Assembly (NCBI GenBank): GCA_946548085.1
Contig: CAMNPN010000001.1
Coordinates: 5,901-69,900, forward strand
Length of the DNA stretch: 64,000 nt
Direction: 5' to 3'
From: an uncultured Prevotella sp.
Lineage (GTDB): Bacteria > Bacteroidota > Bacteroidia > Bacteroidales > Bacteroidaceae
Of this stretch, positions 10,411-26,706 are shown piece after piece. The notes under the pieces are model-generated. The model worked only from the letters and a program-made list of their open reading frames with translations, made no database searches and had not been told where the DNA came from. Each line of letters begins with the position of its first letter. Within the stretch, counting starts at the first letter, position 1. The position numbers and the translations under genes are program-made.

Positions 10411-10439
10411 TTCAAATTATAGTTGGTACTGCTATTCTT

Positions 10440-11524: not shown

Positions 11525-11653
11525 AATCTACAAATTTTAAATAACTCCGCAAAGTTACGTCGATTTGGGCCTCAATCCAAGAAAAAACACAATAACAACC
11601 TTGTGAAATATATAATATGTGGTAAAAACATTCTCGCATTCAATATTTTTTTG

Positions 11654-11661
11654 TATCTTTG
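11654..11661 (+). promoter_or_regulatory. -7 promoter box TATCTTTG of the CHAT-AbiH-CHAT operon
   Basis: Exact TAnnTTTG match 27 nt upstream of the ATG at 11689. It overlaps the TTG start used by the ORF track at 11659. Confidence 0.6.
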
Positions 11662-11688
11662 CCCCAAGTGGAACTAAAAATTGAATAT

Positions 11689-14600
11689 ATGAGAAGACTT
11701 ATTTCTGTCCTATTGTGTGCTGTTTGCCATATAGTCGCTATGGCTCATGTTATTGAGAACCCCATTTTTGACATGACACATTCTCCGAACTTTCGAGTTA
11801 ACAAGATTATCATATCACCTGATACCACCTACTTGTTTTGTACATGCTTTATTAGTGGCACATGGGTAAATATTTCAAAATCAACATATATTGAAGATAT
11901 TGAGTCTATGAACAGATACAATATTATAAAATCCGAAGGTTTGCCTTTTGGTCCTGACAAGATTGAGGTTATAGGTGACTCTTTGATTAATGCGGTATTG
12001 TATTTCCCTCGAATTACAGGAAGCAAAGTTAATTTTATAGAGGATGAGAATTCATATGCATTCAATATCTATGGTATAAACATTAATGAATCATACAAGT
12101 CAACATATACCGATAGAGACATTGATGAATTCAGGGAGTTGGCAGTTAAAGAAGATACTTCTGGTAATTGGGATGCGTCAATAGATTATTCTTTAAAGCA
12201 ACTAGAAGCTTCTGACTATGTTTATGGAAAACGTTCTTTTCCAAGCGCATGGTCTATGTACAATTTAACAATGGAGTATGCTCAATTAGAAAATCAAGAA
12301 TTTGCTGCACGTAAAATGATAGAATGGGGAGAAAAAGCAATTGATATCCTAAACAATGTATCTGCCTACAATTTAAGATTAGATAGTATTAATTTAGACG
12401 TGTTAGCGAGAGCGTATGGAAATACAAGTACTGCATTTACACAACTTGGGCAAAGTGACTCAGCGTCATATTATATGGATAAATCTTTAGATATCAGGAG
12501 AAATTTAGGCAAAGTTAATGGCCTAGATTATGAAGAATATTTGATGCATATGGCAAGAAATTCGTTTTTTGAAGAGAAATACCCTCAAGCATATCTATAT
12601 GCAAAAGAAAGTTCAGATATTTATGAAAAGAAATATAACGAAAATCAGTTGTTTTATGGTTGCTTGTATCTTAATACTTTATCTTACTTGTGCAACTTTG
12701 CTGAAAAGATTGGTAAATATGAAGAGTCCATTAATTATGGGAATAAGGTGCTAGCTCTCTTAAATAGTAATGTATGTCCGGATAAAAAGAGCCAAGAAAT
12801 TTTATACGCATCTACTTGTACGGGGTTGGCTTGTGCATATTCTCAAATTGCCCAAAATGATAAATCTATCGAAATATTAGAAAGTTTTCTAGACACAAAA
12901 CAGGAGTATGGACGTATGTCTATTAGAATGCTATTAGCGGAACAATTGTTGAATTGTAGAAAAGACACGACAAAAGTTATTCAAGAATACAAATCAATAC
13001 TTAAAACTTTGGAAGATAGTATCAGTGTCGGAAAATATAATTATCCAGATTACTCAGAAATCCTCCATAAACTGGCTATTGTTTATATGAAGAAAGATAT
13101 AGATTCTACTATTCACTATTTTGATAAGTATATTGAAGTTCAGAAAAAGTGGAATGGCGAAGAGTCTATTGCATATGGCAATTCTCTTTTTGAGTATATT
13201 CAGTGGTTATCTCCTATTATTATATTAAAGAAGAGTCAAGAAATAGAAAAGGTACAATCATATTTATATCAATCAGCCAATATTATTAAACGCCATTTCA
13301 ATAATTCAATTCCTTTCCTTTCTAAAAGAGACAGAAAGAATTATTGGCAACACTATAAGTTCCTATTTACTGAGTGGATACCCATTATTAATAGAATACT
13401 GAAAACAGACATTTCTTATTCTATGGCTTATGATGCCGCTCTTTTTTATAAAGGAATGTTATTGTCTTCAGAATTGGAATTTAAGAATGTACTTTTATCA
13501 AGTGAAGATAAAACTTTAAAAGAATTGTATGAATCCTATTCACATAATCTTGCTTTAATTGAAAATCTGTATTCTACAAATAGCAATACATCTTTAGTGG
13601 ACTCTTTGAAGTCTGTAATAAGTAGTCAAGAATATCTTCTTTCTCAAAAGGTGTCTAGGTCCTACAGAGAATTCAAAGGTACTAATTTTTCATGGCAAGA
13701 TGTTAGAGGGAAGTTAAGCGATAAAGATGTTGCTATTGAAATAGTATCATATAAAACATTAGTTGATACTATTACTTATTATGATGCATATATCTTAAAA
13801 AAAGGTATATCTGCACCAATACTTATACCACTGTTTGAAGAGAATCAATTAAAAAATTACGTTTCTAATGGCAAAGTTGATTATATGGGCATATCCTCAT
13901 TATTATGGGCTAATGAGGATATGAAGGAAGTTTTAAAGGGAAAAAAGAATATCTATTTCTCAACTTCAGGATTACTAAATCAAATAGGGATAGAATATTT
14001 ACCAATATCTGATGAAAAATATATCTATGATATTTATAACTTGTATAGACTTTCATCTACAAGAGAGTTATGCATGATGGACGATATTCATAATATAGTG
14101 TGTGCATATATTTATGGTGGTCTAGATTATAATGCTTCTGTCGAGAATGATGGGAATGGAAATATCATTAATGATAGTAAAGTGGGTGTGTCTGTTATTA
14201 GGTCGTTAAAGCAAAGAGGGGGATTTGATTATCTTGCAGGTTCAAAAGATGAAATACTTAAGGTTTCTCAAGAATTACAGAATAACAATATAGATTGTAC
14301 TGTTTACACAGCAGAAAAGGGTACTGAGGAATCCATAAAGAAGTTATCAGGTAGTATTGTTAATGCACTTCATATATCAACTCATGGTATCTGCATTTCT
14401 ATAGATAATGATAGCGTATTTCAAAAAAACAATTTGCCGGTTCTGACGCCAGATGAAAATAAAGATATAGATGAAGAAGAAATGTCATTGTCAAGATCAT
14501 TCTTGGTAATGTCCGGAGGCAATTTGCTGATTCGTCGAGATAGTATACCTGAAGGTAAAGATGACGGGTTATTGACTGCGCTTGAGATCTCACATCTTGA

Positions 14601-14913
14601 TTTCCTTAATCTTGATCTTGTTGTGTTATCTGCATGTCAAACAGCCTTAGGCGATGTTGATTCAGAAGGGGTATATGGCCTTCAAAGAGGTTTTAAGAAA
14701 GCTGGCGCAAAAAGCATTCTGATGAGTTTGGATAACGTTGATGATGAAGCAACTCGAATACTTATGGTGGAGTTTTATCGCAATCTTATGAGTGGAAAGA
14801 CAAAGCATCAATCCCTCAAAGATGCCCAGAAGTATCTTCGTCAGGTTGAGAATGGGAAATATGACAAGCCTGAGTACTGGGCCTCGTTTATTATGTTGGA
14901 TGGTCTAAATTGA
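11689..14913 (+). CDS. Exported TPR-repeat CHAT-domain (caspase-fold) protease, long form
   Basis: 1074 aa from the ATG. Has signal peptide MRRLISVLLCAVCHIVAMA and long TPR-like helical repeats. The C-terminal CHAT domain carries His (NALHISTHG) and Cys (LVVLSACQTALG), and the conserved tail ends YWASFIMLDGLN. Confidence 0.85.
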   Translation: MRRLISVLLCAVCHIVAMAHVIENPIFDMTHSPNFRVNKIIISPDTTYLFCTCFISGTWVNISKSTYIEDIESMNRYNIIKSEGLPFGPDKIEVIGDSLINAVLYFPRITGSKVNFIEDENSYAFNIYGININESYKSTYTDRDIDEFRELAVKEDTSGNWDASIDYSLKQLEASDYVYGKRSFPSAWSMYNLTMEYAQLENQEFAARKMIEWGEKAIDILNNVSAYNLRLDSINLDVLARAYGNTSTAFTQLGQSDSASYYMDKSLDIRRNLGKVNGLDYEEYLMHMARNSFFEEKYPQAYLYAKESSDIYEKKYNENQLFYGCLYLNTLSYLCNFAEKIGKYEESINYGNKVLALLNSNVCPDKKSQEILYASTCTGLACAYSQIAQNDKSIEILESFLDTKQEYGRMSIRMLLAEQLLNCRKDTTKVIQEYKSILKTLEDSISVGKYNYPDYSEILHKLAIVYMKKDIDSTIHYFDKYIEVQKKWNGEESIAYGNSLFEYIQWLSPIIILKKSQEIEKVQSYLYQSANIIKRHFNNSIPFLSKRDRKNYWQHYKFLFTEWIPIINRILKTDISYSMAYDAALFYKGMLLSSELEFKNVLLSSEDKTLKELYESYSHNLALIENLYSTNSNTSLVDSLKSVISSQEYLLSQKVSRSYREFKGTNFSWQDVRGKLSDKDVAIEIVSYKTLVDTITYYDAYILKKGISAPILIPLFEENQLKNYVSNGKVDYMGISSLLWANEDMKEVLKGKKNIYFSTSGLLNQIGIEYLPISDEKYIYDIYNLYRLSSTRELCMMDDIHNIVCAYIYGGLDYNASVENDGNGNIINDSKVGVSVIRSLKQRGGFDYLAGSKDEILKVSQELQNNNIDCTVYTAEKGTEESIKKLSGSIVNALHISTHGICISIDNDSVFQKNNLPVLTPDENKDIDEEEMSLSRSFLVMSGGNLLIRRDSIPEGKDDGLLTALEISHLDFLNLDLVVLSACQTALGDVDSEGVYGLQRGFKKAGAKSILMSLDNVDDEATRILMVEFYRNLMSGKTKHQSLKDAQKYLRQVENGKYDKPEYWASFIMLDGLN

Positions 14914-14921
14914 AAGAGGCA

Positions 14922-15887
14922 ATGGCAAAGAATATATATTATATAGGGAATGGCTTCGACCTACATCACCTCATACAGAGCAGCTATAAGAACTACGCAG
15001 ATTGGTTAATGTGCTTTGACTATGGTTTATATTTAAAGGTCAATATGGTATATGGTGCTTTGGGCAGAGAAGATGAATGGTGGGGGGATTTTGAGAACCA
15101 TATTGGAGATTTGGATGTTGAAGCCTATTCTGCTTGGGTATATAGAAACTATGGCCCTGATTTTGGAAGTGATAGTTTTCGCGAGGCCGATCGTTATACT
15201 GCAGAAATGAAAGCAGAGGAGGAACTGAATGATCTGTATTATAAAATTAAACACTCGTTTTACAAATGGGTTCAGCAACTCCATTTAGCAAATGTATTAA
15301 GAAAGGTAGTATTAGATATAAGTGATTCTTATTTCATTTGCTTTAATTATACAGATACCCTGAGGAGACTTTATAAAATCCCCCAGGATAAGATTTGTTA
15401 TATACATGGTAATGCAAGGAAGGGAGATGAATTAGTTCTAGGCCATGGTAAAACAAAGGATCAGTTAATCGAACCTACGTTGATGCCACCTAACTTAACA
15501 GAAGAGCAGCAGCAAGAATGGATTGATGAGAATATAACGGATGACTCATTTCATAGGACTGTAGACGCTACTATAGATGCTGTTAGTAATCAAAGGAAGG
15601 AAGTGGAAAGAATAATATTTCATAATGATGAGGCATGGAATCAAATGACTCATGCACAAAATTTTTACATATACGGTCTTTCCTTCTCCTCAATAGATAC
15701 ACCTTATATAACCAAGGCTCTTTCTATGATGGATAAGAAAAACCTCTCCATTGTAGTAAATTATTATAATCAGAAAGACATAGAGAAAATAAAGGAATAC
15801 TTTCATCAGTTAGAGTTTCCTGAAGAGAAAATAACTATAGTACAATTGAAGGATCTTTTGGTGTACAAACACTTGTATAATCATTAA
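14922..15887 (+). CDS. AbiH-like (abortive infection AbiH family) protein
   Basis: 321 aa. N-terminal IYYIGNGFDLHHLIQSSYKNYADWL and the internal FNYTDTLRRLY...YIHG...LVLGHG blocks match my memory of the AbiH family. No signal peptide. The ATG is 8 nt after the upstream stop. Confidence 0.75.
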   Translation: MAKNIYYIGNGFDLHHLIQSSYKNYADWLMCFDYGLYLKVNMVYGALGREDEWWGDFENHIGDLDVEAYSAWVYRNYGPDFGSDSFREADRYTAEMKAEEELNDLYYKIKHSFYKWVQQLHLANVLRKVVLDISDSYFICFNYTDTLRRLYKIPQDKICYIHGNARKGDELVLGHGKTKDQLIEPTLMPPNLTEEQQQEWIDENITDDSFHRTVDATIDAVSNQRKEVERIIFHNDEAWNQMTHAQNFYIYGLSFSSIDTPYITKALSMMDKKNLSIVVNYYNQKDIEKIKEYFHQLEFPEEKITIVQLKDLLVYKHLYNH

Positions 15888-15894
15888 TAATGAT

Positions 15895-17559
15895 ATGAAA
15901 CGGCTGCTGTGGATATTATTAACTATAGGATTATTTGTTCATAAGGCAAATGGTCAGAAAAGTGAAGTTAGTATTGACAGAGCCATGTCTCTTTCAAGGA
16001 TGGCGGATTTCTATTATACTGCCCATAATTATGAGAAGGCAATAGAGCAAGAAAAGAAAGCACTTGACATGAAGAGTGTACTCTATGGTATACATAGTTT
16101 GGAATATGCAACGTCGGCATTCAATCTCGCCAAGTATTATTATGATCGAGGGATGGAGGGTGAAATTGAATGCAATCCATCAGACTTTATCTACGCAACA
16201 GAGTATGCGAAGAAGTCTATGGCCATTATAAAGGATACGGTCCTTTTTGAAATGAAAGGTTTGGATTATAATTCAAGGTATCAGTTGTGGCAGAACGTAA
16301 ATACTATTTTTGACAGCACCTTTCCGAGCTATGTGGCGAAGAATCCCAATGATTCTATTCTCTCTGATCTTTACAATATCATACTATTTTCAAAAGGAAT
16401 AACCTGGAGAAGAGACGGAGGCATAAATACAATGTGCTGGAAAGAAATACAGAACGCACTTGGTGAGAATGATATCGCTATCGAATTTATATCACCAGTA
16501 GTGCCATCTAATGATAATATGGTGTTCTATGCGTTGACGCTAAAAAAGGGATATAGATGTCCTAAGATGACAAGGCTTTTTGATATCTTTCAGTTTAAAG
16601 ATTCATTAAAATCTTGTAGTTCAAAAGTCGAAAAAGGCCAAAAGATCGGAAATATGGTTTGGAATCCTCTTAATAATGAACTCATTGGAATAGAGAATGT
16701 CTATTTCTCTGCAACGCATGTGCTGAATAATATGCCTATTGAGTATATGCCAATAACTGACACGGAAACCTACAGTGACAGATATTGCATGATAAGGGTT
16801 TCGTCTACTCAAGAAATTGCAAATAATAAAAAACGTAATCATTTTAACAAAGCTATCCTATTCGGAGGTTTGCAATATGAGGCTATAGAGGCGAAAGGTG
16901 AAGATAGAATGGAAAGAAGTGGATTTGAACCTTTACCAAATACAGGAGAAGAGGTCGCTGAGATTGCGAATGTATTTGAGAAAAGACATATCGACTACAA
17001 AGTTTATTCTGGTGATGAAGGGACGGAAGAATTATTTAAGTCTCTTTCCGGCAGTTCCGTTGATATCCTTCATTTAGCAACTCATGGTAAGTATATAGTC
17101 AATAACGACGTTGGGGTGTATCATAATGGTGATGAAGCTTTGACGAATTCGATACTTGTTTTTTCTGGGGTAAATAAACGATCTACATCTAGTTTTGAAC
17201 AAGATGATGGTATAGTAACAGCTCTCGATATATCGCAGATGGTCTTTGGTAATCTTGATCTCATTTCATTATCAGCCTGTGAGTCTGCTTTGGGTGAATA
17301 TGGGATAGATGACAGTATCATGGGTTTACAGCGTGGCTTTAAAATTGCTGGAGCTAATACCATTTTGATGAGTATAGACAAAGTTGATGATGAAGCAACA
17401 AGAATACTGATGGTAGAGTTCTATCGCAATCTTATGAGTGGAAAGACAAAGCATCAATCCCTCAAGGATGCCCAGAAGCATCTTCGCAAGGTTGAGAATG
17501 GGAAATATGACAAGCCCGAGTATTGGGCATCTTTTATTATGTTGGATGGGTTGAATTAA
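15895..17559 (+). CDS. Exported TPR-repeat CHAT-domain protease, short form
   Basis: 554 aa with signal peptide MKRLLWILLTIGLFVHKANG and N-terminal TPR-like repeats. CHAT His (DILHLATHG) and Cys (LISLSACESALG) are present. The last ~60 aa are nearly identical to the 11689-14913 product. Confidence 0.85.
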   Translation: MKRLLWILLTIGLFVHKANGQKSEVSIDRAMSLSRMADFYYTAHNYEKAIEQEKKALDMKSVLYGIHSLEYATSAFNLAKYYYDRGMEGEIECNPSDFIYATEYAKKSMAIIKDTVLFEMKGLDYNSRYQLWQNVNTIFDSTFPSYVAKNPNDSILSDLYNIILFSKGITWRRDGGINTMCWKEIQNALGENDIAIEFISPVVPSNDNMVFYALTLKKGYRCPKMTRLFDIFQFKDSLKSCSSKVEKGQKIGNMVWNPLNNELIGIENVYFSATHVLNNMPIEYMPITDTETYSDRYCMIRVSSTQEIANNKKRNHFNKAILFGGLQYEAIEAKGEDRMERSGFEPLPNTGEEVAEIANVFEKRHIDYKVYSGDEGTEELFKSLSGSSVDILHLATHGKYIVNNDVGVYHNGDEALTNSILVFSGVNKRSTSSFEQDDGIVTALDISQMVFGNLDLISLSACESALGEYGIDDSIMGLQRGFKIAGANTILMSIDKVDDEATRILMVEFYRNLMSGKTKHQSLKDAQKHLRKVENGKYDKPEYWASFIMLDGLN

Positions 17560-17560
17560 T

Positions 17561-17586
17561 ATTGGAGAGGGAATTCCCTCTCCAAT
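17561..17586. terminator. Perfect 26-nt palindrome, bidirectional terminator candidate
   Basis: attggagagggaattccctctccaat starts 2 nt after the CHAT stop. It lies between convergent ORFs and has no long T run. Confidence 0.55.
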
Positions 17587-17590
17587 AACG

Positions 17591-17737
17591 CTACCACACA
17601 TAAGGTCTATCAAGGATTTTTGTGTTTCCGCACTTGGGGCACTTAAACTCTGTTAGTTGACGAACTACACCATTTCGGATTTCTGTTCTTGTCCTCATCT
17701 CGACCATCTGGCTTTTACAAAAGAAACAATTTTCCAT
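17591..17737 (-). CDS. Small zinc-ribbon protein (YgiT/MqsA-N-terminal-like CxxC...CxxC), candidate
   Basis: 48-aa ORF below the track cutoff: MENCFFCKSQMVEMRTRTEIRNGVVRQLTEFKCPKCGNTKILDRPYVW. A TACCTTTG box lies at 17851-17858 (minus strand) upstream. Convergent with the CHAT gene. Confidence 0.4.
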   Translation of the reverse strand: MENCFFCKSQMVEMRTRTEIRNGVVRQLTEFKCPKCGNTKILDRPYVW

Positions 17738-18145
17738 AATTGAATCAATTATTTGTTAATATTATGCGGTTCTCCATGCACCGCGTTATCAAGCTACTAA
17801 CATTGGTTCAAGACTCGAGTATGGAGCAGAAACTGGAGTTTTTCCATGTGCAAAGGTATAAACAATAATTGAGAACGCCAAACAATCTCACCATTTTTTT
17901 TGATAAACTCTCAGAATAGACGCCATTTACGTGTTATTGAACGAATACGGTCATTTGATGAAAATATCACTTTGAAGGCTCTTTCTTCTTGCTGGTTCAT
18001 CTGCTCTTAAGGAACTTCTCTATCTGATTGGTATGTCCTTCCATGTTGTTGCCTTTTCCTCTTGATACTGGGCATTATTTCAAGATAATTGAGTAGAAAG
18101 AGTGCAAACTTGCGTGATAGTTGAGTTTCGTGCTTATTTTTCACA

Positions 18146-18346
18146 GGTGACAAAGGAGCAGAATCTTCATTCTTATCATTATCAGGAGGACCAATAGATA
18201 TACTTCATTTAGCTACTCATGCAAGTATATCAGCAGTAGTATGGGGTTGCAAAGATGCCCAAAAGTATCTTCGTCAGATTGAAGATGGGAAATATGACAA
18301 ACCAGAGTATTGGGCCTCATTTATCATGTTGGATGGATTGAACTAA
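18146..18346 (+). pseudogene. Internally deleted remnant of a third CHAT protease gene
   Basis: The frame reads GDKGAESSFLSLSGGPIDILHLATHAS...KDAQKYLRQIEDGKYDKPEYWASFIMLDGLN*. It retains the His box and the C-terminal tail but lacks the roughly 110-aa segment with the catalytic Cys. It has no start codon; an in-frame TGA lies at 18122-18124. Confidence 0.75.
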
Positions 18347-18348
18347 AA

Positions 18349-18370
18349 GAGGGCGCATTAATGCGCCCTC
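18349..18370. terminator. Perfect 22-nt palindrome after the CHAT remnant
   Basis: gagggcgcattaatgcgccctc sits 3 nt after the remnant stop, in the same position as the 17561-17586 palindrome relative to the LDGLN stop. Confidence 0.5.
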
Positions 18371-18376
18371 GACATG

Positions 18377-18520
18377 TTAGTGGCATAGTATACCGAGCAA
18401 TGACGCTATGATACTCAAAAATGCAGCTATCTGTGTGAGAACATCTGATCTCCTTTTTGAATTGCTGACATTATAGTTATGCCACTCCACGTGTACCTTC
18501 TGAATTAACATTATTATCAT
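18377..18520 (-). CDS. Small tail-anchored hydrophobic peptide, candidate
   Basis: 47-aa ORF MIIMLIQKVHVEWHNYNVSNSKRRSDVLTQIAAFLSIIASLLGILCH with one C-terminal TM helix. A TATCTTTG box lies at 18633-18640 (minus strand) upstream. Confidence 0.3.
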   Translation of the reverse strand: MIIMLIQKVHVEWHNYNVSNSKRRSDVLTQIAAFLSIIASLLGILCH

Positions 18521-18678
18521 AACAATAATTCTTTTTGATACTCCGTGGCTCCGAGGCTCCTGGAGTTGTGGTGAATAAATACTTCACGGCTCTGTGGCTC
18601 TCCAGAAGATGAGCGAGTTTCGTTCACGGCAGCAAAGATACAACAAGATTACTAAACTTCCAAATTTTTTATGGAAAA

Positions 18679-19200
18679 TTATGTAGATTTCTCTGGAGGG
18701 TCAAACAGGAATGAAATGGTCTCGTTGAATTCCTCTATGACCTGAGGCAGATTCGGGTTATCCCTTTTTGATATAATGGCGATGAAATTCATGATTCCGT
18801 CCATCTTGCCCTCAGCAGTTTTCATGATAAATAATTCACGTCTTTCGTAGATGTTAAACCAACGCACGAAGAGTCTGTTTCGGAATGCTTGCTTGCGGTC
18901 GCCTGTCTCTGCCAAATAAAGCATGGTATCGTCACCGTTTACATCAAAGAACTCTTCGATGATGGCAAAAATGGTAAGTCGTAATTTGCTGTCATGAGGT
19001 GAACGCTCATGGTGTCTGTTGGTAATACCAAACTCGTAGGCTCCACTGGGGATAATGGCCTCATTTATTGTGAAGTCGATGTCGAACCTGACACCACTAT
19101 CACTGACAAAGTAGAAATTGTTATGTCTCACAGGATCCTGCATCACCTTATAAGGAGCATGCAGATTGATGTTCTCCAATCTGAGTGTGTTCATAGTCAA
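18679..19200 (-). CDS. Hypothetical protein (173 aa)
   Basis: Clean ORF on the same strand, 26 nt downstream of the 45-aa ORF. I recognise no motif. Confidence 0.6.
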   Translation of the reverse strand: MTMNTLRLENINLHAPYKVMQDPVRHNNFYFVSDSGVRFDIDFTINEAIIPSGAYEFGITNRHHERSPHDSKLRLTIFAIIEEFFDVNGDDTMLYLAETGDRKQAFRNRLFVRWFNIYERRELFIMKTAEGKMDGIMNFIAIISKRDNPNLPQVIEEFNETISFLFDPPEKST

Positions 19201-19226
19201 TAAAGGTTTAAAAGGCTTCTCTGTTT

Positions 19227-19364
19227 TTATGCAAAAAAGCCTTGAAGTTCTAACTCGTCCATTCTCTTCAGATTTTCTTCCATGCGCTCCTTCTTCCTGC
19301 GCATCGTCTCCCTGAATGCGGCTCTCACCTCTTCACGGGTTCTTTTTGTTTTTCTTGTTTCCAT
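19227..19364 (-). CDS. Small basic protein (45 aa), candidate first gene of a two-gene cassette
   Basis: METRKTKRTREEVRAAFRETMRRKKERMEENLKRMDELELQGFFA. A TAACTTTG box at 19400-19407 (minus strand) lies 35 nt upstream of the ATG, which is canonical spacing. Confidence 0.45.
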   Translation of the reverse strand: METRKTKRTREEVRAAFRETMRRKKERMEENLKRMDELELQGFFA

Positions 19365-19458
19365 ATCGATAAAAAGTTAAGATGTTATTAATACGCTGGC
19401 AAAGTTACGGATAAATCCTGAAACTCCCAAATAATTTGAGTAAAAAGTGAGATAGAGT

Positions 19459-20121
19459 TCATTTCCTCAACTTATTAAGTATTTCCAGAGCCTTGACAGC
19501 AATGGGTGTATCAGGATTATCTTCTGCCAATTTCTTTAGAACAGGAATAGCCTTATTTGTCTGATCGTTCTTAATATAGGCAAGGGCCAGATTAATGGCA
19601 ATGTCGTTGGCATAAGCGGAATAGGTGAAGTCTGAGTCCATATTGGAATAAATGGTTTCCAATTCTGCTATGATGGTACTGACGTTGCGCTGTTCCTTTA
19701 TATTATTAAATAAGGTGTAGAGGTGGGCGACGGTAACAGAATCTAAATCACCGCGTGAATAATCATCCATGCTATACTCAGAATAATAGGGTGATACAAG
19801 TGCGGAGAGTTCATTAAATCGCTTGTCTTTCTGATAGCCGAAGAAGATGGCAATGACGGCAGCGATAGAGCAGGCCCATGCAACAAGCGTGCGTAGTCTT
19901 TCTTTGGTGTTGTTGCTGATAAGTGTCTTTTCCTTAGCAGCCTCCTGTGAGCGTATGCTTTTAATCAGAGATACGGTAGCCAACACTTGGGCACGCAGTT
20001 CTGGGTCTGCCTTGATCTCTTGCTTAAAGGCTTGTTCTTCAACCTCTGTCATGGCACCACGTATGAAAGCATCGATTCTTTCTTCGATGGCCTGCTGTTG
20101 TATATCGTTGTACTTATCCAT
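19459..20121 (-). CDS. Membrane anti-sigma-like protein with extracytoplasmic TPR-like domain
   Basis: 220 aa. N-terminal FIRGAMTEVEEQAFKQEIKADPEL is an anti-sigma-type helix, followed by a single TM helix (LVAWACSIAAVIAIFFGY) and a C-terminal TPR-like tail. The ATG overlaps the sigma gene stop by 8 nt. Confidence 0.6.
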   Translation of the reverse strand: MDKYNDIQQQAIEERIDAFIRGAMTEVEEQAFKQEIKADPELRAQVLATVSLIKSIRSQEAAKEKTLISNNTKERLRTLVAWACSIAAVIAIFFGYQKDKRFNELSALVSPYYSEYSMDDYSRGDLDSVTVAHLYTLFNNIKEQRNVSTIIAELETIYSNMDSDFTYSAYANDIAINLALAYIKNDQTNKAIPVLKKLAEDNPDTPIAVKALEILNKLRK

Positions 20122-20698
20122 AGATCTTATTCTTTAGTTCGTTATACTTGTCGCGGAACTTCTTCACGCACTTATATTTCTGGGCCTTAACGGAGTTGGC
20201 ATCAGAGAAGTTGAACATATCTGCAATGGTTGATGTCGAGAAGTCATCCCAGTAGTAACTATGAAGAATATTCTTGCAGGTGTCTGTCATCGAGGCGATG
20301 ATATTGTTCACCAGCAGTTCCATACGGGTTTTCCTTTCTTCTTCCTCCGCATCTATACAAGCGCCATAGAGTTCTGCTATCTTGTCATCACGTACAAAGT
20401 CGGAGTTGGTGAGTCTTCTATCGTCAAAGAAAGGTTTCGTCTTGCTGTCCTTTCCCAGGAACTTTAGGGTCTGGTTAATGCAGACTCTCATGAAATAGGT
20501 TCCTAACGAACTTGTCAGAGTAGACAACTTCCCGTCACGGACATTCAGGAAAAGAGCCATTGATGACTCCTGGAAGATATCATCAAGGTCATCATCTGAG
20601 ACATAGAACTGTTTCCGTAGATATGACAATACCCTTCCTCTCTCATCAGAAAGGAAGCGGTTCAAATCCTGGTTCTGCAATGATATCTCCTTTGCCAT
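20114..20698 (-). CDS. ECF-type sigma-70 family RNA polymerase sigma factor
   Basis: 194 aa. Region 2-like DDLDDIFQESSMALFLNV...YFMRVCINQ and region 4-like CKNILHSYYWDDFSTSTIADMFNFSDANSVKAQKYKCVKKFR. Confidence 0.8.
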   Translation of the reverse strand: MAKEISLQNQDLNRFLSDERGRVLSYLRKQFYVSDDDLDDIFQESSMALFLNVRDGKLSTLTSSLGTYFMRVCINQTLKFLGKDSKTKPFFDDRRLTNSDFVRDDKIAELYGACIDAEEEERKTRMELLVNNIIASMTDTCKNILHSYYWDDFSTSTIADMFNFSDANSVKAQKYKCVKKFRDKYNELKNKIYG

Positions 20699-20699
20699 A

Positions 20700-21569
20700 T
20701 TAGAAACTCGTTTCTGTTACCATGTTCTGATTATTGGGCCAATGGCCATTCTTCATAATGGAAGCCTTGACTCCATTCAAGAATTCCTCGGCATTGGTGG
20801 ATAAGGGTCTTGTTTGCAATGCCTGAGCGATGTTGTAAGACAGCGGGCCATAGCGCTTATCTGCCACCATTATCTCCATATTCACCTGATCCGGGCGACA
20901 GGCTTCAAGATACAGGACATGAGACTGTTTGGCTGATGGCTCAATCTTGTAATGGGACTTCTTGTCAGCAGAAGGCTTGAACACCTTGTTATGATAGGTA
21001 AAGCCGACCTTGGTACCTCTGACTGTTTCGTCATTGGCGCGTGAGGATGTGCCGGCATGGCAGGCATCAATCACCACATAGAGGAATCCCGTAGGACCTA
21101 TCTTGTCGCGTAACTTTTTGACGTATGTGTTCAGCTGATCATCCAGAAGATGCTTTTTCCCTTCATAGACGCCTTTCTTATAGAGTTTATAGGCATCGAT
21201 GGGGATGATGGCTTCATCCCAGCCATCTTCTTCATCACCATTCAAGTCTTCTACAGGCTGGCCGTGTGCTGAGAAGTGGAGATAGACGATATCACCTTTT
21301 TTCGTCTTGTCTGCGAACTGAGATAGTTGGGTGATAATATTTTCGAAAGTGGCCTGTTCATCCAAGAGAGAGGTGATAGCAAATCCTTGCTTTTTCAGGA
21401 TGGGAGTTAAAAGATTCACGTCTTCAGTACCATTGATATTATTCCACTGGTAGCCAGTCAATGCCGTGTCATAATGAGAGATGCCCACCATGAAAGCCCT
21501 TTTCCGTTGTGGAAATGCAACAGACGAAATACAGCATAACAGACTTAATATCAGCAGTTTCCAATTCAT
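20700..21569 (-). CDS. Exported caspase-family (peptidase C14) protease
   Basis: 289 aa from the ATG at 21569, with signal peptide MNWKLLILSLLCCISSVAF. The catalytic dyad blocks are YLHFSAHGQ and VVIDACHAGTS. Its stop codon is 1 nt from the sigma ATG. Confidence 0.85.
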   Translation of the reverse strand: MNWKLLILSLLCCISSVAFPQRKRAFMVGISHYDTALTGYQWNNINGTEDVNLLTPILKKQGFAITSLLDEQATFENIITQLSQFADKTKKGDIVYLHFSAHGQPVEDLNGDEEDGWDEAIIPIDAYKLYKKGVYEGKKHLLDDQLNTYVKKLRDKIGPTGFLYVVIDACHAGTSSRANDETVRGTKVGFTYHNKVFKPSADKKSHYKIEPSAKQSHVLYLEACRPDQVNMEIMVADKRYGPLSYNIAQALQTRPLSTNAEEFLNGVKASIMKNGHWPNNQNMVTETSF

Positions 21570-21587
21570 TGCCCAAAATATTTTCGG

Positions 21588-21595
21588 CAAATATA
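21588..21595 (-). promoter_or_regulatory. -7 promoter box TATATTTG of the caspase-sigma-anti-sigma operon
   Basis: Plus-strand caaatata is the reverse complement of TATATTTG, 18 nt upstream of the ATG at 21569. The track start at 21590 is the TTG inside this box. Confidence 0.6.
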
Positions 21596-21690
21596 CAAAA
21601 ATATTTCGAAATAGCGGTTACCTTTTTGTTTTTTTCAGTATAAAGAGGCAAATAAACAACAAATTAGTAACAATTTAAACATCAAACAAA

Positions 21691-22230
21691 ATGAAAAAAG
21701 TATTTTATCACATCACGAGAGTGTTTTCTAAGTGCTGGTTTATCATCCTCCTTGCTTGCACGATTTCGCCAATCGTAGCCTTAGGTGTCCTCATCCTCTT
21801 TACCATTATCTCAATGGTATTTTTCAAGGATCCTGATGATGCCAAGAACCCTGATGATTATTTCACAGATGAGGAAATGAAGAGATTGGAGTCCGGCGAG
21901 GACATGAATGACGAGGAGTTTCTGACGCTGGTGGCTAAATGTCAGACCTTCAACTGCCCGAAGAAAGTCGATCCTGTAACGACCTGGACGAGTTCTGAAT
22001 TGACCAAGGACGCATACATCTATAACTATGAGATTAACGACAAAAAACACATGTATCGTCTCTTGGATATGAATGACCTGAAGAATCAGATCCTGTCAAG
22101 GATTGACAAACAAAACGATAAGATTCAGCGCATTATTGCTACTAATAGAAATCTTGTGTTCCGTTACAGGAATTATCAGAAGAACACCATAGAAGATGTT
22201 GTTCTGACAACAAACGAGCTTAGGAGTTAA
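21691..22230 (+). CDS. Hypothetical membrane-anchored protein (179 aa)
   Basis: N-terminal hydrophobic stretch WFIILLACTISPIVALGVLILFTIISMVFF followed by a soluble domain. It is divergent from the caspase operon. Confidence 0.6.
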   Translation: MKKVFYHITRVFSKCWFIILLACTISPIVALGVLILFTIISMVFFKDPDDAKNPDDYFTDEEMKRLESGEDMNDEEFLTLVAKCQTFNCPKKVDPVTTWTSSELTKDAYIYNYEINDKKHMYRLLDMNDLKNQILSRIDKQNDKIQRIIATNRNLVFRYRNYQKNTIEDVVLTTNELRS

Positions 22231-22269
22231 GATTAGAAACATGTATAACCCTATAAAAACAGAAATAAT

Positions 22270-22836
22270 ATGGCACTATTAAGTTTGTTCGGCGCAAAGC
22301 CAAAGGAAAAGGTAGAGATGGTTCCTGTCATTCCAGAGAATTCTACCGAGCAAGATGCTGAGGACGTAAAGAACTCAGAGGAAGACAACGAAGAAGAGAA
22401 AAAGCATCTGATCACCATCACCTGGGGAACGGGAATGCCCATAGACGTCATTTTCAACTACATTCATAAGAACTTCGAGGAAGAAGGATTCCAGGATGCG
22501 TTGGTTAATTCAGACATTACTTATCGCGATGCCAAAGAGAAAATTATCCGTAACGACCTGGAGATGCTTTTCAAACGTATTATCCTCTGCTACAAGAAGA
22601 ATATCCGTGAGATAGATGTCCAGATTAACAATGCCCGTCAGGCATACGCCCTTTCTGCTGCATCAAGCCTGGAAGCCCGGCGTACCACCTATGAAGAGCA
22701 TCTTACAGAGATTGATGAGATGCGTGAACAGTTTGAGTCAGACGATCCTAAAATGATGACCATGATAGAGTCATATCGCAGGGGATTTCTCAAAGGAATC
22801 ACAGCAGTATCACTTAAGTTTATTAATCACGAATAA
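22270..22836 (+). CDS. Hypothetical protein (188 aa), acidic N-terminus plus helical C-terminus
   Basis: Clean ORF 39 nt after the previous gene. No recognised motif. Confidence 0.6.
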   Translation: MALLSLFGAKPKEKVEMVPVIPENSTEQDAEDVKNSEEDNEEEKKHLITITWGTGMPIDVIFNYIHKNFEEEGFQDALVNSDITYRDAKEKIIRNDLEMLFKRIILCYKKNIREIDVQINNARQAYALSAASSLEARRTTYEEHLTEIDEMREQFESDDPKMMTMIESYRRGFLKGITAVSLKFINHE

Positions 22837-22848
22837 GAATTATCAGTT

Positions 22849-23838
22849 ATGAAAACTTTAAATAATATTGGATGTGCCCTGATTGGATGGGACAAGAATA
22901 TCTTGAAAGAATGTGGTGAGGCAAGTCACCGCCAGTTTAGAAAACTGATCTCTGCCATTTGTATCATGATGATACTCTGGGGAACCATCGGCTACTGTTT
23001 TGCCGACAGATACATAAATATTGAATCATTAGTATTGAAGATTTGTATTGCCTTGATGTTCATGCTCATTGTCTTATGCGTAGAACGAGTGATCATTCTA
23101 ACGGTTGGCAAAGCGCGCCTTATGACTGTGATGAGAGTTATGCTTGCTTTATGTATGGCTTTTCTGGGAGCTTGTATCTTTGACCAAATTATCTTCCAAA
23201 ATGATATTCAGCAGACAATACACGATCGCCGTGAGGACGTAATTCAGGAAACTACAGCAAAACGTCTGATGGTCTTTAATAGTGATATACAAAGGATTAC
23301 TCATGATTTGGATTCGTTGAGCAAATCTACAATTACTTTGGGTGAAGAATTGGCGAAACATCCTACTATAAAGAGCGTTAACGTATCAACAATAGAACAG
23401 GCCATAGGAGTTGATGAGAATGGTAATCCAAAGAAAGTGAGAAATCGTTCTACAGAGATTGTGAATATTCCTAATCCTCTGACTGGACAGCTAAATGCAA
23501 ATAACGAACAGATTCAGTTATATCAAAATCAGTTAGAGCAGCTTCGTCAGGACAAAAAAGAGATTGCTGGAAAGGTGACAGATGAAATACACTCTCGTCC
23601 TGTTGGATTTATTGAGGAATTGGAAGCGACTCTGAAGGTTGTGTCGAACAGCTGGATATCATTGGTATTTTATATAGTTCTCTTCTGCTTCCTGACATTT
23701 CTGGAACTGTTCGTTCTAACAATCAAAATGGGCGAAAGTAAGTGTGACTATGATTTGATAGTGGAGAACCAGTTGAAACTGAAAAAGAACCTCATGGATC
23801 AGACTGCACAGAGTATGATGGTGAATATAGCAGTTTAG
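22849..23838 (+). CDS. Membrane protein with long central coiled coil (DUF4407-like architecture)
   Basis: 329 aa with three N-terminal TM helices, a heptad-rich segment of about 140 aa (LNANNEQIQLYQNQLEQLRQDKKEIAGK) and a C-terminal TM helix (WISLVFYIVLFCFLTFLELFVLTI). The family name is from memory and uncertain. Confidence 0.6.
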   Translation: MKTLNNIGCALIGWDKNILKECGEASHRQFRKLISAICIMMILWGTIGYCFADRYINIESLVLKICIALMFMLIVLCVERVIILTVGKARLMTVMRVMLALCMAFLGACIFDQIIFQNDIQQTIHDRREDVIQETTAKRLMVFNSDIQRITHDLDSLSKSTITLGEELAKHPTIKSVNVSTIEQAIGVDENGNPKKVRNRSTEIVNIPNPLTGQLNANNEQIQLYQNQLEQLRQDKKEIAGKVTDEIHSRPVGFIEELEATLKVVSNSWISLVFYIVLFCFLTFLELFVLTIKMGESKCDYDLIVENQLKLKKNLMDQTAQSMMVNIAV

Positions 23839-23864
23839 TATTAACACTTTAAATATAAACGTTT

Positions 23865-24131
23865 ATGGAAACAAGAGACGACTTATTTAGTGATGTCATC
23901 GAAGAGATGTTTGAAGAACTACCCATTGAAGTTAAAATGGATATGGATGAGGAAGATTTGGAAGATCTAGTCGATGAAGATAATGATTGGGAAGAATCTG
24001 ATAATTACGAGTGTGGTGGTTATCTGTGGACAGAGGAAGATTCCTGGGATGCACTTACGGATGGAATGTATGGTGAAATGCCCAATAGCCCTTGGGAATA
24101 TGATGCGATGATGGATGCTATGGGATTCTAA
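23865..24131 (+). CDS. Extremely acidic small protein (88 aa)
   Basis: By my count 33 Asp/Glu against 2 Lys/Arg. It has aromatic-acidic motifs (DNDWEESDNYE, SPWEYDAMMD). Confidence 0.6.
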   Translation: METRDDLFSDVIEEMFEELPIEVKMDMDEEDLEDLVDEDNDWEESDNYECGGYLWTEEDSWDALTDGMYGEMPNSPWEYDAMMDAMGF

Positions 24132-24144
24132 TAAAGTTTAGACT

Positions 24145-24717
24145 ATGGATAAGGAATTAAAAGTAATGATCTCAAAAGAAATGGAGCAGTTCCATTGCTC
24201 CATTCTTTTAGACGAAGTGAAAGAAAAAGTACGTAAGTTGAAAGCGTATGGTGTGGAGGAAGCAGATATTGTAGCTGCCATGAATGAGGAAGAACTATTC
24301 CCTCAGTTGGTGGTGACAGAAGATTACAAGGTTGTTTTGGCAGGAGAAAAGTCCATAGAGGTAGAGATGGAGCCCCTGATAAAGGCTATATATTTGTTGT
24401 TCTTGTCCCATCCAGAGGGGATTGTGCTCAAATGTCTTCCAGATTATCGTAAAGAACTAACTAGTATCTATCTGCTTCTACGTCCATATGGACTTACTGA
24501 CAGAGTAGAAAATAGTATTGAAAGCGTGACCAATCCTATGCAGAACTCAATCAATGAGAAGTGTGCCAGGATTCGGAAACTGTTCTCATCGCTGCTCCCC
24601 AAGAGTGTTGCCAAATATTATGCCATTTCTGGTAAGCGTGGCGAAGCCAAGAAGATAGATCTTGTTCGGGCCAATGTCGTCTGGAAATGCAAATTGCCTA
24701 ATTCGCAAGGCTTGTGA
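24145..24717 (+). CDS. Uncharacterised protein, paralog of the FtsZ-coupled gene at 28117-28701
   Basis: 190 aa. Shares the blocks VVTEDYKVVL, IYLLFLSHPEGI, NSINEKCARIRKLF and VVWK with the 28117-28701 product. Confidence 0.65.
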   Translation: MDKELKVMISKEMEQFHCSILLDEVKEKVRKLKAYGVEEADIVAAMNEEELFPQLVVTEDYKVVLAGEKSIEVEMEPLIKAIYLLFLSHPEGIVLKCLPDYRKELTSIYLLLRPYGLTDRVENSIESVTNPMQNSINEKCARIRKLFSSLLPKSVAKYYAISGKRGEAKKIDLVRANVVWKCKLPNSQGL

Positions 24718-24751
24718 TGCAAAATAGTTTGGCGGCAGAGATATTAGTTAG

Positions 24752-24759
24752 TATCTTTG
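24752..24759 (+). promoter_or_regulatory. -7 promoter box TATCTTTG ahead of the 142-aa gene and dnaB
   Basis: Exact TAnnTTTG match 23 nt upstream of the ATG at 24783. It lies inside the longer track ORF that starts at 24714. Confidence 0.55.
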
Positions 24760-24782
24760 CCACCTATTTAATTTTATTTCTT

Positions 24783-25211
24783 ATGACAGACTACGAGTAC
24801 ATTATTACACAATTGAAGAAGTGTCATTTCTCTGGATGGGATGACAAAGTGATGAGGGATTGTATTGACAGGTTGCCTAACTTGTCGCGTCAGGAATTGA
24901 CAGCGCTCTATTTAGGTAAATGGGTGAAGGAGTATGCTGTGTTTAAGGAGGCTATCTTCAACATTATGTTTGCTGATAAGATAGGACTGCGAGAAGAGCG
25001 TATCAGGAATCTTGATACGGAGGCGCTGATTGCGGAGTTTAAGGATAAGAAAGGTGGAAATGTGTCACTTTGCAGGGAAGAACTGAAGGCTCGCTATGAG
25101 GCTGGGCGTGATGTGGATCTGATAGCTGAGGCTTTTACTGCTTCGAACAAGAAAGACCAGCAGTGGATTATCAAACAGGAGAAGAAATCAAAGGATGGGG
25201 ACAAGAAGTGA
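24783..25211 (+). CDS. Hypothetical protein (142 aa) overlapping the dnaB start
   Basis: MTDYEYIITQLKK... start chosen because of the promoter box. The 3' end overlaps the dnaB ATG by 17 nt. Confidence 0.55.
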   Translation: MTDYEYIITQLKKCHFSGWDDKVMRDCIDRLPNLSRQELTALYLGKWVKEYAVFKEAIFNIMFADKIGLREERIRNLDTEALIAEFKDKKGGNVSLCREELKARYEAGRDVDLIAEAFTASNKKDQQWIIKQEKKSKDGDKK

Positions 25212-26706
25212 TAGGAGACAGTCGTCGCAGCAGTCATTGGAACTTGCTTACGGTCATGTGATGCCTCAGGCTCCTGAGGTGGAGAAGGCTGTGCTGGGAG
25301 CGCTGATGATAGACAAGGATGCCTATCTGGAGGTGTGCGACCTGTTGAGGCCAGAGAGTTTCTATGAGCCAAGAAACCAGATGGTGTATGAGGCTATTAT
25401 GAAACTCAGCATAGAGGAGAGTCCCGTGGATGTGCTGACGGTGACTGACAAGTTGGGCAAGATGGGGAAACTCGAGGATGTCGGAGGGCCTGGATATATA
25501 GCAGAACTCAGTTCAAGGGTCGCTTCTTCGGCCAATATCGAGTATCATGCCAATGTGGTGGCGGAGAAATATCTGTCGCGCCAGATGATTCATTATGTGG
25601 GAGAGGTAGGAAAGAAGACTTTTGACGAGACATATCCCATCAAGGATGTGGTTAATGATGCACAGGCCAAACTCTTTGAACTGTCTCAGAAGAATATGAA
25701 GAAGGACTATTCCGTGCTTGCTCCTATTCTGGAGAGGGCTGTCAAGTCTGTTCAGGATGCCCACTCTAATACAGGAGGTGTGACGGGTATTCCCACCGGT
25801 TTTTACAAACTGGACGACATCACTTGCGGATGGCAAAAGTCTGATCTTGTGATTATTGCCGGAAGACCTGCTATGGGAAAGACTGCCTTTGCCCTTTCAT
25901 TGGCGAAGAACATCGCTGCGGATCAGAAGATTCCGATGGCATTCTTCTCGTTGGAGATGTCAAGCGAACAACTGGCAAACCGTCTGATGGCTAATGCCTT
26001 TGAGATAGACGGTAAGAAACTCATGAGCGGACAGTTGGATCGTGAAGATTGGAACAGGCTTGATAAGGGTATGAATAATCTCGTAGACGCACCTTTGTAT
26101 ATTGACGATACGGAAGGACTTTCGGTGATGGAACTGAGGACTAAGGCTCGTCGATTGGTAAATGAACACCATGTGCAGTTGATCATGGTGGATTACCTTC
26201 AACTGATGACTGCCAGTGGCATGAGATATAACAGTCGCCAAGAGGAGGTGTCGCTGATTTCCCGATCACTGAAAGGTCTCGCTAAGGAATTGGATATCCC
26301 TGTTCTGGCATTAAGTCAGTTGAACAGAGGGGTAGAGGGAAGAGATGGGGCAGAGGGGAAACGCCCCATGCTTTCTGACCTTCGAGAGTCTGGTGCCATT
26401 GAGCAGGATGCGGATATGGTGGTGTTCTTGCATCGCCCAGAGTATTATGGTATTATGATGAGTGATGACGGCACGAAAGACTATCGAGGGATGGCGGAAG
26501 TGATAATAGCCAAGCATCGTAAAGGTGCAGTTGGTATCAAGTTGTTGAAGTTCAGAGGGGAATACACGCGGTTTGAGAATCCAGAGGATAATATGATTGG
26601 CAATGGTGTTCCCAGCGATGGTGGTGAAATCGTTGGCTCGAAGATCAATGGTGAGAATAGCATGCCCTTCCCGCCACCAGACTCATTCAACTCGTTCAAT
26701 ATTTAA
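25195..26706 (+). CDS. dnaB: Replicative DNA helicase
   Basis: 503 aa. Has the N-terminal domain EVEKAVLGALMIDKDAY, Walker A GRPAMGKTAF, and the SLEMS, DYLQLM and RESGAIEQDAD blocks. Confidence 0.9.
   Translation: MGTRSDRRQSSQQSLELAYGHVMPQAPEVEKAVLGALMIDKDAYLEVCDLLRPESFYEPRNQMVYEAIMKLSIEESPVDVLTVTDKLGKMGKLEDVGGPGYIAELSSRVASSANIEYHANVVAEKYLSRQMIHYVGEVGKKTFDETYPIKDVVNDAQAKLFELSQKNMKKDYSVLAPILERAVKSVQDAHSNTGGVTGIPTGFYKLDDITCGWQKSDLVIIAGRPAMGKTAFALSLAKNIAADQKIPMAFFSLEMSSEQLANRLMANAFEIDGKKLMSGQLDREDWNRLDKGMNNLVDAPLYIDDTEGLSVMELRTKARRLVNEHHVQLIMVDYLQLMTASGMRYNSRQEEVSLISRSLKGLAKELDIPVLALSQLNRGVEGRDGAEGKRPMLSDLRESGAIEQDADMVVFLHRPEYYGIMMSDDGTKDYRGMAEVIIAKHRKGAVGIKLLKFRGEYTRFENPEDNMIGNGVPSDGGEIVGSKINGENSMPFPPPDSFNSFNI

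Follow-up and report, generated by a model that had tools for sequence, protein, structure and literature searches.

Within a 64,000-nucleotide stretch of DNA from an uncultured rumen Prevotella sp. (contig CAMNPN010000001.1; this whole stretch is called the window below), a low-GC island carries what sequence comparison identifies as a core cassette of four genes, coding for an exported C14 caspase, a sigma factor of the extracytoplasmic function (ECF) type, a single-pass membrane protein that behaves like an anti-sigma factor, and an exported TPR-CHAT protease. The best explanation we can offer for the whole, to which we give slightly more credence than doubt, is that the periplasmic caspase-fold proteases of the cassette cleave the anti-sigma factor, upon which the sigma factor would be freed and promoters sharing a common motif would be fired. 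An earlier note on this DNA had described a unit of three genes: the triplet of caspase, sigma factor and anti-sigma-like protein is indeed conserved, but the conserved unit has four genes, the TPR-CHAT gene that lies near most triplets having been overlooked.

The triplet lies on the minus strand in a tight arrangement, every coordinate of which reproduces what had first been noted: the caspase TAA (20700-20702) is followed after one spacer base by the sigma ATG (20696-20698), the sigma gene and the gene for the anti-sigma-like protein (gene 3) share an 8-nt overlap (20114-20121), and all three minus-strand open reading frames (ORFs) stand behind a -7 box of the Bacteroidetes housekeeping type (TAnnTTTG, here TATATTTG; 21588-21595), 19 nt from the caspase ATG at 21569. 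A mechanical ORF listing starts the caspase at TTG 21590, but because this codon would fall within the promoter box, ATG 21569 is likely the true start. The box is a regular feature of these operons, with TAnnTTTG found no more than 110 nt from the operon start in 58 of 78 loci against 6.3 in shuffles. No intrinsic terminator was found immediately 3' of gene 3. The DUF6169 gene (18679-19200) was weighed as a possible fifth member of the operon but rejected, since no related locus has a counterpart.

The first gene encodes a protein of 289 amino acids (aa) which, judged by its profile match and catalytic motifs, is a C14 caspase, putatively of the orthocaspase/metacaspase type. It matches Pfam Peptidase_C14 (PF00656) over residues 22-272 (E 2.5e-21, 76.9 bits vs a cutoff of 21.4), and the dyad of His102 (FSAHGQ) and Cys170 (DACHAG), which the earlier note had called intact, does not vary among 30 relatives, the most distant of them at 34% identity, and aligns with the HG and DSCHSG motifs of the yeast metacaspase Mca1. 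Asp50 and Asp168 are also invariant in the family alignment, where they align to the Asp of the metacaspase CxND motif and that of DxCHSG, positions that in metacaspases with Arg/Lys specificity make up the acidic S1 pocket. Ahead of the p20 core stands only a signal peptide (MNWKLLILSLLCCISSVAFPQ), with no EACC module, and an EACC-associated caspase system was rejected on the score of NF047832 caspase_w_EACC1 (17.2 bits vs a cutoff of 140). Export, likewise proposed before, is borne out by a hydrophobic N-terminal segment in 80 of 82 caspase homologues; signal peptides and transmembrane (TM) helices were called by a hydropathy heuristic throughout. In some loci (L055, L059 and L068) a second C14 caspase gene, additional to the one ahead of the sigma gene, follows straight after the anti-sigma gene, overlapping its stop.

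The second gene product (194 aa) is, by its profile matches, an ECF (group IV) sigma factor limited to regions 2 and 4, as had been read from the sequence at the outset. It scores 49.1 bits on TIGR02937 (sigma70-ECF; cutoff 42.9), so that the C14 and sigma assignments both stand above curated thresholds for hidden Markov models (HMMs), and the profile of its family matches SigW (5wuq, 4e-10; aligned over residues 31-184) and sigma-E over regions 2 and 4. The Pfam model Sigma70_r2 gives a weak match to the window protein (13.5 bits) and is matched by 19 of 26 relatives.

Gene 3 (220 aa) is encoded directly after the sigma gene and has one TM helix with its N-terminus inside, and in these respects it behaves like a class-I-like anti-sigma factor. 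An N-terminal domain (residues 3-67) is followed by the TM helix (76-94), a loop and a TPR-like tail (128-219), and an AlphaFold2 (AF2) model (predicted local distance difference test, pLDDT, 75.5) has three N-terminal helices, the TM helix, the loop and a tail of six TPR-like helices. Its relatives, all annotated 'hypothetical protein' and covered by no curated family, share the N-terminal motif DERIxxYLxGxMxxxEExxFxxELxxDxxLR. The window protein reaches the NCBIfam model NF052375 'antisigma' at E 0.003, far under cutoff, and its TPR matches are also sub-cutoff; among 31 diverse relatives, NF052375 is matched by 14 (best 1.3e-5), the anti-sigma-E model PRK13920 by 8 and DUF3379 by 3. Of the architecture originally sketched for this protein, the single TM helix is upheld (70 of 77 homologues), and the anti-sigma N-terminus and TPR tail are supported in part, the HMM matches being sub-cutoff and the AF2 helices agreeing. 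In the family alignment, the N-terminal domain has no conserved Cys or His that could supply the HxxxCxxC zinc ligands, and gene 3 does not qualify as a zinc-binding anti-sigma factor. In the loop that joins the TM helix to the TPR-like domain, variable for the rest, Tyr112 is kept in 206, Arg123 in 205 and Gly124 in 203 of 208 sequences; Arg123-Gly124 is the most conserved feature of this juxtamembrane loop, lies in a region that the AF2 model leaves unstructured, and is possibly the site of cleavage.

The fourth partner is present twice in the window, in two genes that flank an AbiH gene and whose products are, by profile and dyad, CHAT proteases (PF12770). The longer gene probably starts at ATG 11689 (MRRLISVLL...) behind a -7 box, TATCTTTG; the product of the shorter one has the signal peptide MKRLLWILLTIGLFVHKANGQ and the dyad LATHG / SACES. 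Among relatives, which range from 520 to 2005 aa across loci, the His/Cys dyad is found in 71 of 71 and a signal-peptide-like N-terminus in 59 of 69. Since the N-termini of caspase and CHAT proteins are signal-like and the anti-sigma protein has one TM helix, the proteases and the anti-sigma tail would all lie outside the cytoplasm and share a compartment. The caspase of the window is 99% identical to its counterpart in a metagenome-assembled genome (MAG) of a roe-deer abomasum Prevotella (L005), where the sigma factor is 95% and the anti-sigma protein 88% identical, but the CHAT proteins, encoded in L005 at 8612-12112, are only 34-41% identical. Because the CHAT protein is thus hypervariable, or swapped, beside near-identical caspase, sigma and anti-sigma proteins, it is likely the sensor-like component, and the TPR-CHAT protein may be the actual sensor or the site-1 protease. 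The slot after the CHAT gene is variable too, being filled by AbiH in L071, L074, L078, L143 and L198, by DUF3800 in L002, L003 and L021, and by a 571-aa protein of no named family in L001. In 11 distant loci, from Muribaculaceae and others (including L045, L063, L065, L067, L069, L074, L078, L080 and L084), the module is closely followed, downstream of CHAT, by a gene for a PIF1-like helicase whose C-terminus has a TPR segment.

The extent of the cassette was judged from a caspase profile search of one-genome-per-species contigs, which gave 556 relatives, of which the best 80 (43-99% caspase identity) were examined by ORF calling and iterated HMM searches with 6-kb flanks, the fragmented MAG contigs bounding the counts. 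All 80 loci are from Bacteroidales, bar a few contigs with MAGs labelled as other taxa, which are possibly mis-binned. At least 69 of the 80 species-level loci, spread over several Bacteroidales families, have the genes for caspase, sigma and anti-sigma in this order on the same strand, with median gaps that match those of the window (+1 and -8 nt), and the co-occurrence that the earlier note had put up for checking is thereby established across Bacteroidales. Of 84 loci in all, 77 have a sigma gene as the neighbour of the caspase, 75-77 have gene 3, and 72-73 have a CHAT gene within 6 kb; 57 of the 69 species-level loci with the triplet have a CHAT gene nearby. In closer relatives it lies downstream of the triplet in convergent orientation (30 loci), as in the window, and in distant lineages it is part of the triplet operon, either directly after the anti-sigma gene (17 loci, often overlapping) or directly before the caspase. 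When neighbouring ORFs were clustered, caspase, sigma, anti-sigma and CHAT were the only families common to all lineages, and AbiH and DUF3800 proved to be lineage-specific and outside this core.

What the sigma factor might control is suggested by a promoter-like motif, GGTTACCTTTT-N11-GTATAAAG, which was first spotted in the intergenic region between the caspase gene and p179 and is unlike the Bacteroidetes housekeeping promoter. The 64-kb window holds exactly two perfect copies, with 0.01 expected, even allowing three mismatches, and the two hardly differ from each other between the -35-like element and the end of a leader of ~35 nt. One points into the divergent DUF4407 operon and the other into the gene for the exported repeat protein p178. 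We infer that the cassette sigma factor has this motif as its output promoter; the suggestion, made when the locus was first described, that the divergent operon is part of the sigma regulon has now gained the support of a shared promoter motif, by its placement. Within the window the motif is found only before p179 and p178; ahead of the protease and sigma operons stand housekeeping -7 boxes. Constitutive synthesis is thus probable for the proteases and for the sigma/anti-sigma pair, and the proteases would act upstream of sigma activation, because their promoters have the housekeeping boxes and lack the ECF-type motif.

In relatives the motif recurs at these two positions, 50-150 nt ahead of the start codon and sometimes tandemly duplicated. 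The copy on the p178 side, beyond the CHAT gene, is seen in L001-L003, L014, L017, L026-L031 and many metagenome contigs, and at L057 (45% caspase identity) a variant stands ahead of a set of genes whose last members are p188-DUF4407. Distant lineages have the variant GTTTACCTTT(T)-N10/11-GGTATAAT in the intergenic DNA flanking the module, and across distant loci the core G[GT]TTACCTTT gives 14 matches vs 2.2 expected, whereas a loose regular expression for the motif showed no enrichment there (8 vs 6.2).

The predicted target operon is present in 27 close loci. Its p179 is a TM protein, p88 is acidic, the DUF4407 protein (22849-23838; Pfam 2.2e-36) has four TM helices, and the other members belong to no family; a PHROGs scan of the operon's proteins gave no meaningful match. 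Across rumen Prevotella the caspase is less conserved than the DUF4407 protein, which has many matches at 99-100% identity. A low-confidence model lays it out as three N-terminal TM helices, a long stalk of helix, beta-hairpin and helix, and a C-terminal TM helix; this AF2 model, made from a shallow alignment (>=82% identity; pLDDT 60.9, predicted template modelling score, pTM, 0.30), was not used for fold search or inference. The second predicted target, p178, consists of about seven tandem repeats of ~24 aa (SSYTDSFGNTTTT..NGG..G), through which Arg and His are scattered. In close, distant and sister lineages the recurrent predicted target of the sigma factor is an exported low-complexity protein, and those like p178 could be protease substrates, decoys or inhibitors.

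Table 1. Features of the cassette and its surroundings in the window (a blank strand marks a region without orientation).
Feature	Position	Strand	Basis or remark
Exported C14 caspase gene	20700-21569	-	ORF and upstream sequence
ECF (group IV) sigma factor gene	20114-20698	-	ORF, TIGR02937
Gene for anti-sigma-like single-pass membrane protein (gene 3)	19459-20121	-	ORF, alignment, AF2
-7 box of caspase operon, Bacteroidetes housekeeping type	21588-21595	-	Sequence
Exported TPR-CHAT protease, 1084 aa as listed	11659-14913, likely ATG 11689	+	Pfam CHAT 3.8e-46, TPR_12
Second exported TPR-CHAT protease, 554 aa	15895-17559	+	Pfam CHAT 1.9e-49, TPR_12
ECF-type motif copy 1, with leader	21616-21645	+	Points into divergent DUF4407 operon
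ECF-type motif copy 2, with leader	11021-11050	-	Points into p178; 75 nt upstream of p178
Predicted target operon: p179, p188, DUF4407, p88, p190, p165	21691-25211	+	Motif; Pfam
p178, exported repeat protein, predicted sigma target	10440-10976	-	Sequence, motif
AbiH-family protein	14910-15887	+	Pfam AbiH 2.8e-46; 4-nt overlap with long CHAT gene
TPR152, small exported TPR protein	11066-11524	-	Weak TPR matches; divergent from CHAT gene, recurs beside p178
Low-GC island holding the whole cassette	10000-25211		29-44% GC vs ~53% in flanks

A scan of metagenomes with the motif alone returned many rumen contigs with the module and ~22 soil and freshwater contigs with neither caspase nor CHAT. The latter hold a sister sigma family of environmental Bacteroidota, with sigma and anti-sigma genes paired in the fetched stretch (L086, L091, L094, L100, L104, L108, L109, L118, L122, L126, L154, L156, L157, L175, L181, L192 and L199) or with the sigma gene only (L124, L128, L135, L159 and L183). 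The sister sigma factors score 88-101 bits on the HMM of the cassette sigma family (26-31% identity), and the sister anti-sigma protein (~370 aa), encoded after the sigma factor, shares the N-terminal motif and the TM position of gene 3. The sister motif, GGTTACCTTTT-N11-GTATAAA, lies 150-200 nt from the sigma gene in divergent orientation, and its target is a divergently encoded lipoprotein of 58-78 aa with low-complexity repeats rich in S, T, D and K, a parallel to p178. The sister family is therefore like the cassette in its homologous sigma factor, anti-sigma N-terminal motif and TM helix, promoter motif and divergent exported low-complexity target, but unlike it in having neither CHAT nor C14, its protease being a fused serine protease: the anti-sigma C-terminus is a periplasmic Trypsin_2 domain in 6 of 6 tested (E 1e-23 to 1e-26). 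Because all six carry this domain, a protease tied to the exterior of the anti-sigma protein would be a trait of this sigma lineage, and the Bacteroidales cassette appears to have swapped a fused protease for caspase-fold enzymes acting in trans. Full-text literature searches found no description of the trypsin-fused family.

Taken together, these features suggest a pathway of four steps. Housekeeping-type promoters would yield the proteases and the sigma/anti-sigma pair, with the anti-sigma protein tethering its sigma partner to the membrane. Caspase-fold proteolysis would be switched on by a cue in the periplasm that the variable TPR-CHAT protein reads, the CHAT protein acting either directly or via the small, putatively Arg/Lys-type caspase as a second-tier or alternative site-1 enzyme. 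The anti-sigma protein would then be clipped outside the membrane, with Arg123-Gly124 between the TM helix and the TPR-like domain as the candidate site, and a site-2 protease would complete the cleavage and release the sigma factor. Finally, the sigma factor would fire GGTTACC-N15-GTATAAA promoters, which in the window would bring on the DUF4407 membrane-protein operon and p178. The purpose of the system may lie in envelope or phage defence.

In bacterial signalling, the release of ECF sigma factors under the control of proteases is a central theme. In canonical regulated intramembrane proteolysis (RseA with DegS and RseP, RsiW with PrsW, RsiV and RsiP with signal peptidase, CSS anti-sigma factors with Prc), as in the proposed pathway, an extracytoplasmic cue leads to a site-1 clip on the outside of a membrane anti-sigma factor and hence to sigma release. 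The known site-1 proteases are, to our knowledge, serine or metallo enzymes encoded elsewhere, whereas the candidate site-1 enzymes here are caspase-fold cysteine proteases encoded in the cassette itself. Type III-E Craspase (Cas7-11, the TPR-CHAT protein Csx29, Csx30, Csx31 and RpoE) and CalpL-CalpT-CalpS, whose CalpL combines a Lon-type protease and a SAVED domain, are cytoplasmic systems triggered by target RNA or cyclic oligoadenylate. The analogies to both that the earlier note had drawn turn out to be loose, given the exported proteases of the cassette, and what is shared is only the logic of a protease that cuts an anti-sigma-like inhibitor and so frees an ECF-type sigma factor. As assignments for the locus, we rejected Craspase (no cas domains in the island ORFs, no PADLOC system, and CHAT proteins with signal peptides; no scan was aimed at CRISPR arrays) and CalpL-CalpT-CalpS (no Lon or SAVED domain among the neighbours).

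The closest precedent is DdvA/DdvS of Myxococcus xanthus, in which a single-pass anti-sigma factor has a fused periplasmic TPR-CHAT with a His-Cys dyad, is proposed to serve as its own site-1 protease by CHAT self-cleavage ahead of RseP, and holds a sigma factor, DdvS, that drives a neighbouring CBASS/CRISPR island (PMC11506125; PMC6061681). Under the proposed pathway the two systems would be alike in an ECF sigma factor held by a single-pass anti-sigma factor, a periplasmic TPR-CHAT as input and a neighbouring island as target. In DdvA, however, the TPR-CHAT is fused and the cytoplasmic domain is a zinc-binding anti-sigma domain (ZASD), whereas the cassette has separate exported CHAT proteins, an additional C14 caspase, no zinc motif, a TPR-like tail of ~90 aa and a Bacteroidales host, and its predicted regulon is the DUF4407 operon and an exported repeat protein rather than CBASS/CRISPR. 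A DdvA-type anti-sigma factor was accordingly rejected for gene 3, a 220-aa protein without CHAT beside CHAT proteins that are separate ORFs with their own signal peptides. DdvA-like proteins were found by those authors only in Myxococcota and one Comamonas (PMC11506125).

Caspase-family proteases beside sigma factors have also been seen before, in metacaspase and sigma-70 operons of Myxococcus, Fibrobacter and others (Asplund-Samuelsson et al., 2012; PMC3501461) and, together with a TPR protein, in neighbourhoods of EACC2-caspase, ECF sigma factor and DUF1822 TPR protein, for which a caspase-triggered transcriptional output was proposed (Kaur et al., 2021; PMC8195603). Those caspases differ in carrying EACC2 or other modules and variable C-termini and in coming from other phyla (Myxococcota, Fibrobacter etc.), and neither study describes a quartet of exported minimal caspase, sigma factor, membrane anti-sigma factor and CHAT. 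In ECF54 of Actinobacteria, with CHAT, subtilase and carboxypeptidase genes in its context, CHAT has been proposed as a direct proteolytic regulator of the sigma factor (PMC8999054); the conserved neighbourhood with CHAT as proposed regulator is similar, but there is no anti-sigma factor, the phylum is another and the sigma factor itself is the proposed target of proteolysis. Full-text literature searches found no description of the Bacteroidales quartet, and so the view first taken, that this is not a described system, stands for the quartet but has to be softened by the precedents in PMC3501461, PMC8195603 and DdvA (PMC11506125).

Several considerations weigh against a protease-gated switch. 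We infer the action of the caspase and CHAT proteins on the anti-sigma protein, and with it who would cleave whom, at which site and for what biological role; adjacency cannot tell regulators from co-expressed cargo, a caveat stated in the ECF reclassification itself, by which operon neighbours may be targets as well as regulators (PMC7826278). The pairing of sigma factor and motif draws on placement and comparison. The anti-sigma label depends on sub-threshold HMM matches, an N-terminal motif and a moderate-confidence AF2 model, and no solved anti-sigma structure matched gene 3: its profile found only TPR matches among the sequences of solved structures, and a Foldseek search of the AF2 model gave no match at E <= 0.001, its top (non-significant) neighbours being TPR domains. 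The presumed basic (Arg/Lys) P1 specificity of the caspase is read from an alignment and from the rule that links an acidic S1 pocket to Arg/Lys specificity in metacaspases (PMC6426788), and the conservation of Arg123-Gly124 could be structural. Finally, 12 of the 69 triplet loci have no CHAT gene in the flank, mostly on truncated contigs, and the CHAT genes of the window lie outside the sigma operon.

The most serious competitor, which we regard as unlikely, is that an ordinary ECF pair sensing envelope stress or another cue is freed by generic site-1 and site-2 proteases or by binding of a partner to the TPR tail, with the caspase and CHAT proteins carried as cargo that acts on other periplasmic or surface substrates such as p178, the envelope, or competitor or phage proteins. 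Such a role would agree with the observation that ECF operon neighbours can be targets as well as regulators, with TPR domains usually being partner-binding modules that are not usually cleaved, and with the exported low-complexity proteins among the conserved targets of both the cassette and the sister families, since p178 has Arg and the small lipoproteins are Lys-rich, and either could be a substrate or inhibitor of proteases. Against it, the proteases are not behind the ECF-type promoter, the tight translational coupling of caspase, sigma and anti-sigma genes is kept over 43-99% identity, and the sister anti-sigma proteins fuse a protease, as DdvA does a CHAT.

The hypervariable CHAT protein and the low-GC island also bring to mind an abortive-infection or conflict system, in which the TPR-CHAT and caspase would be death or immunity effectors with variable partners (AbiH, DUF3800) and the sigma factor would only tune an accessory DUF4407 operon. 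AbiH is translationally coupled to CHAT in the window and recurs in the loci given above, DUF3800, PIN, ADP-ribosylglycohydrolase and PIF1-like helicase genes are neighbours elsewhere, and the PADLOC caspase model weakly matches gene 1. We nevertheless think this improbable, as both proteases are exported, unlike the known cytoplasmic caspase and CHAT defence effectors, no PADLOC system was matched, and AbiH and DUF3800 are lineage-specific; it would also be compatible with the protease-gated switch, whose purpose may be defence. That the genes are independent and adjacent by chance is a general possibility with nothing further in its favour, and is effectively refuted by an order and junction spacing kept in so many loci and families.

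A bolder version of the protease-gated switch, which we find distinctly doubtful, is a periplasmic caspase cascade in which the hypervariable TPR-CHAT protein senses a fast-evolving foreign cue (a phage or competitor protein) and activates an Arg-specific C14 executioner, which cuts Arg123-Gly124 and launches the membrane-protein response, the whole having evolved from a fused serine protease by a swap. If true, it would be a bacterial extracytoplasmic counterpart of initiator/executioner caspase signalling, with transcription rather than death as its output. The hypervariable CHAT and the AbiH and DUF3800 neighbours do hint at sensing of phages or competitors. For the switch in general, caspase-fold enzymes in sigma release are so far represented by one fused, unproven case (DdvA) and by cytoplasmic CRISPR-linked systems; if it holds, Bacteroidales, a dominant order of gut and rumen, would use exported caspases and CHAT proteins as trans-acting signal transducers, and bacterial enzymes of the metacaspase type, whose natural substrates are mostly unknown, would gain a concrete candidate substrate and site. 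The motif and the small predicted regulon make the pathway testable by reporters in the cultured Prevotella sp. P6B1, Palleniella intestinalis and Prevotellamassilia timonensis.

The island that holds the cassette is ~15 kb long and lies between a VapE-like gene and dnaB (25195-26706); a horizontally mobile Bacteroidales cassette is the best explanation of the locus. Scans for tRNA genes and Rfam families gave no element that would mark an integration site in the island or its ends, and a PADLOC scan of ten island proteins found no system, with a weak generic caspase match to gene 1 only. Between the short CHAT gene and DUF6169, ~1.1 kb (17560-18680) holds no ORF longer than 50 aa; the sole small ORF noted there (17591-17737, minus strand) encodes 48 aa resembling a zinc ribbon (CxxC...CxxC), and at 18349-18370 on the minus strand there is a strong hairpin that resembles a terminator.

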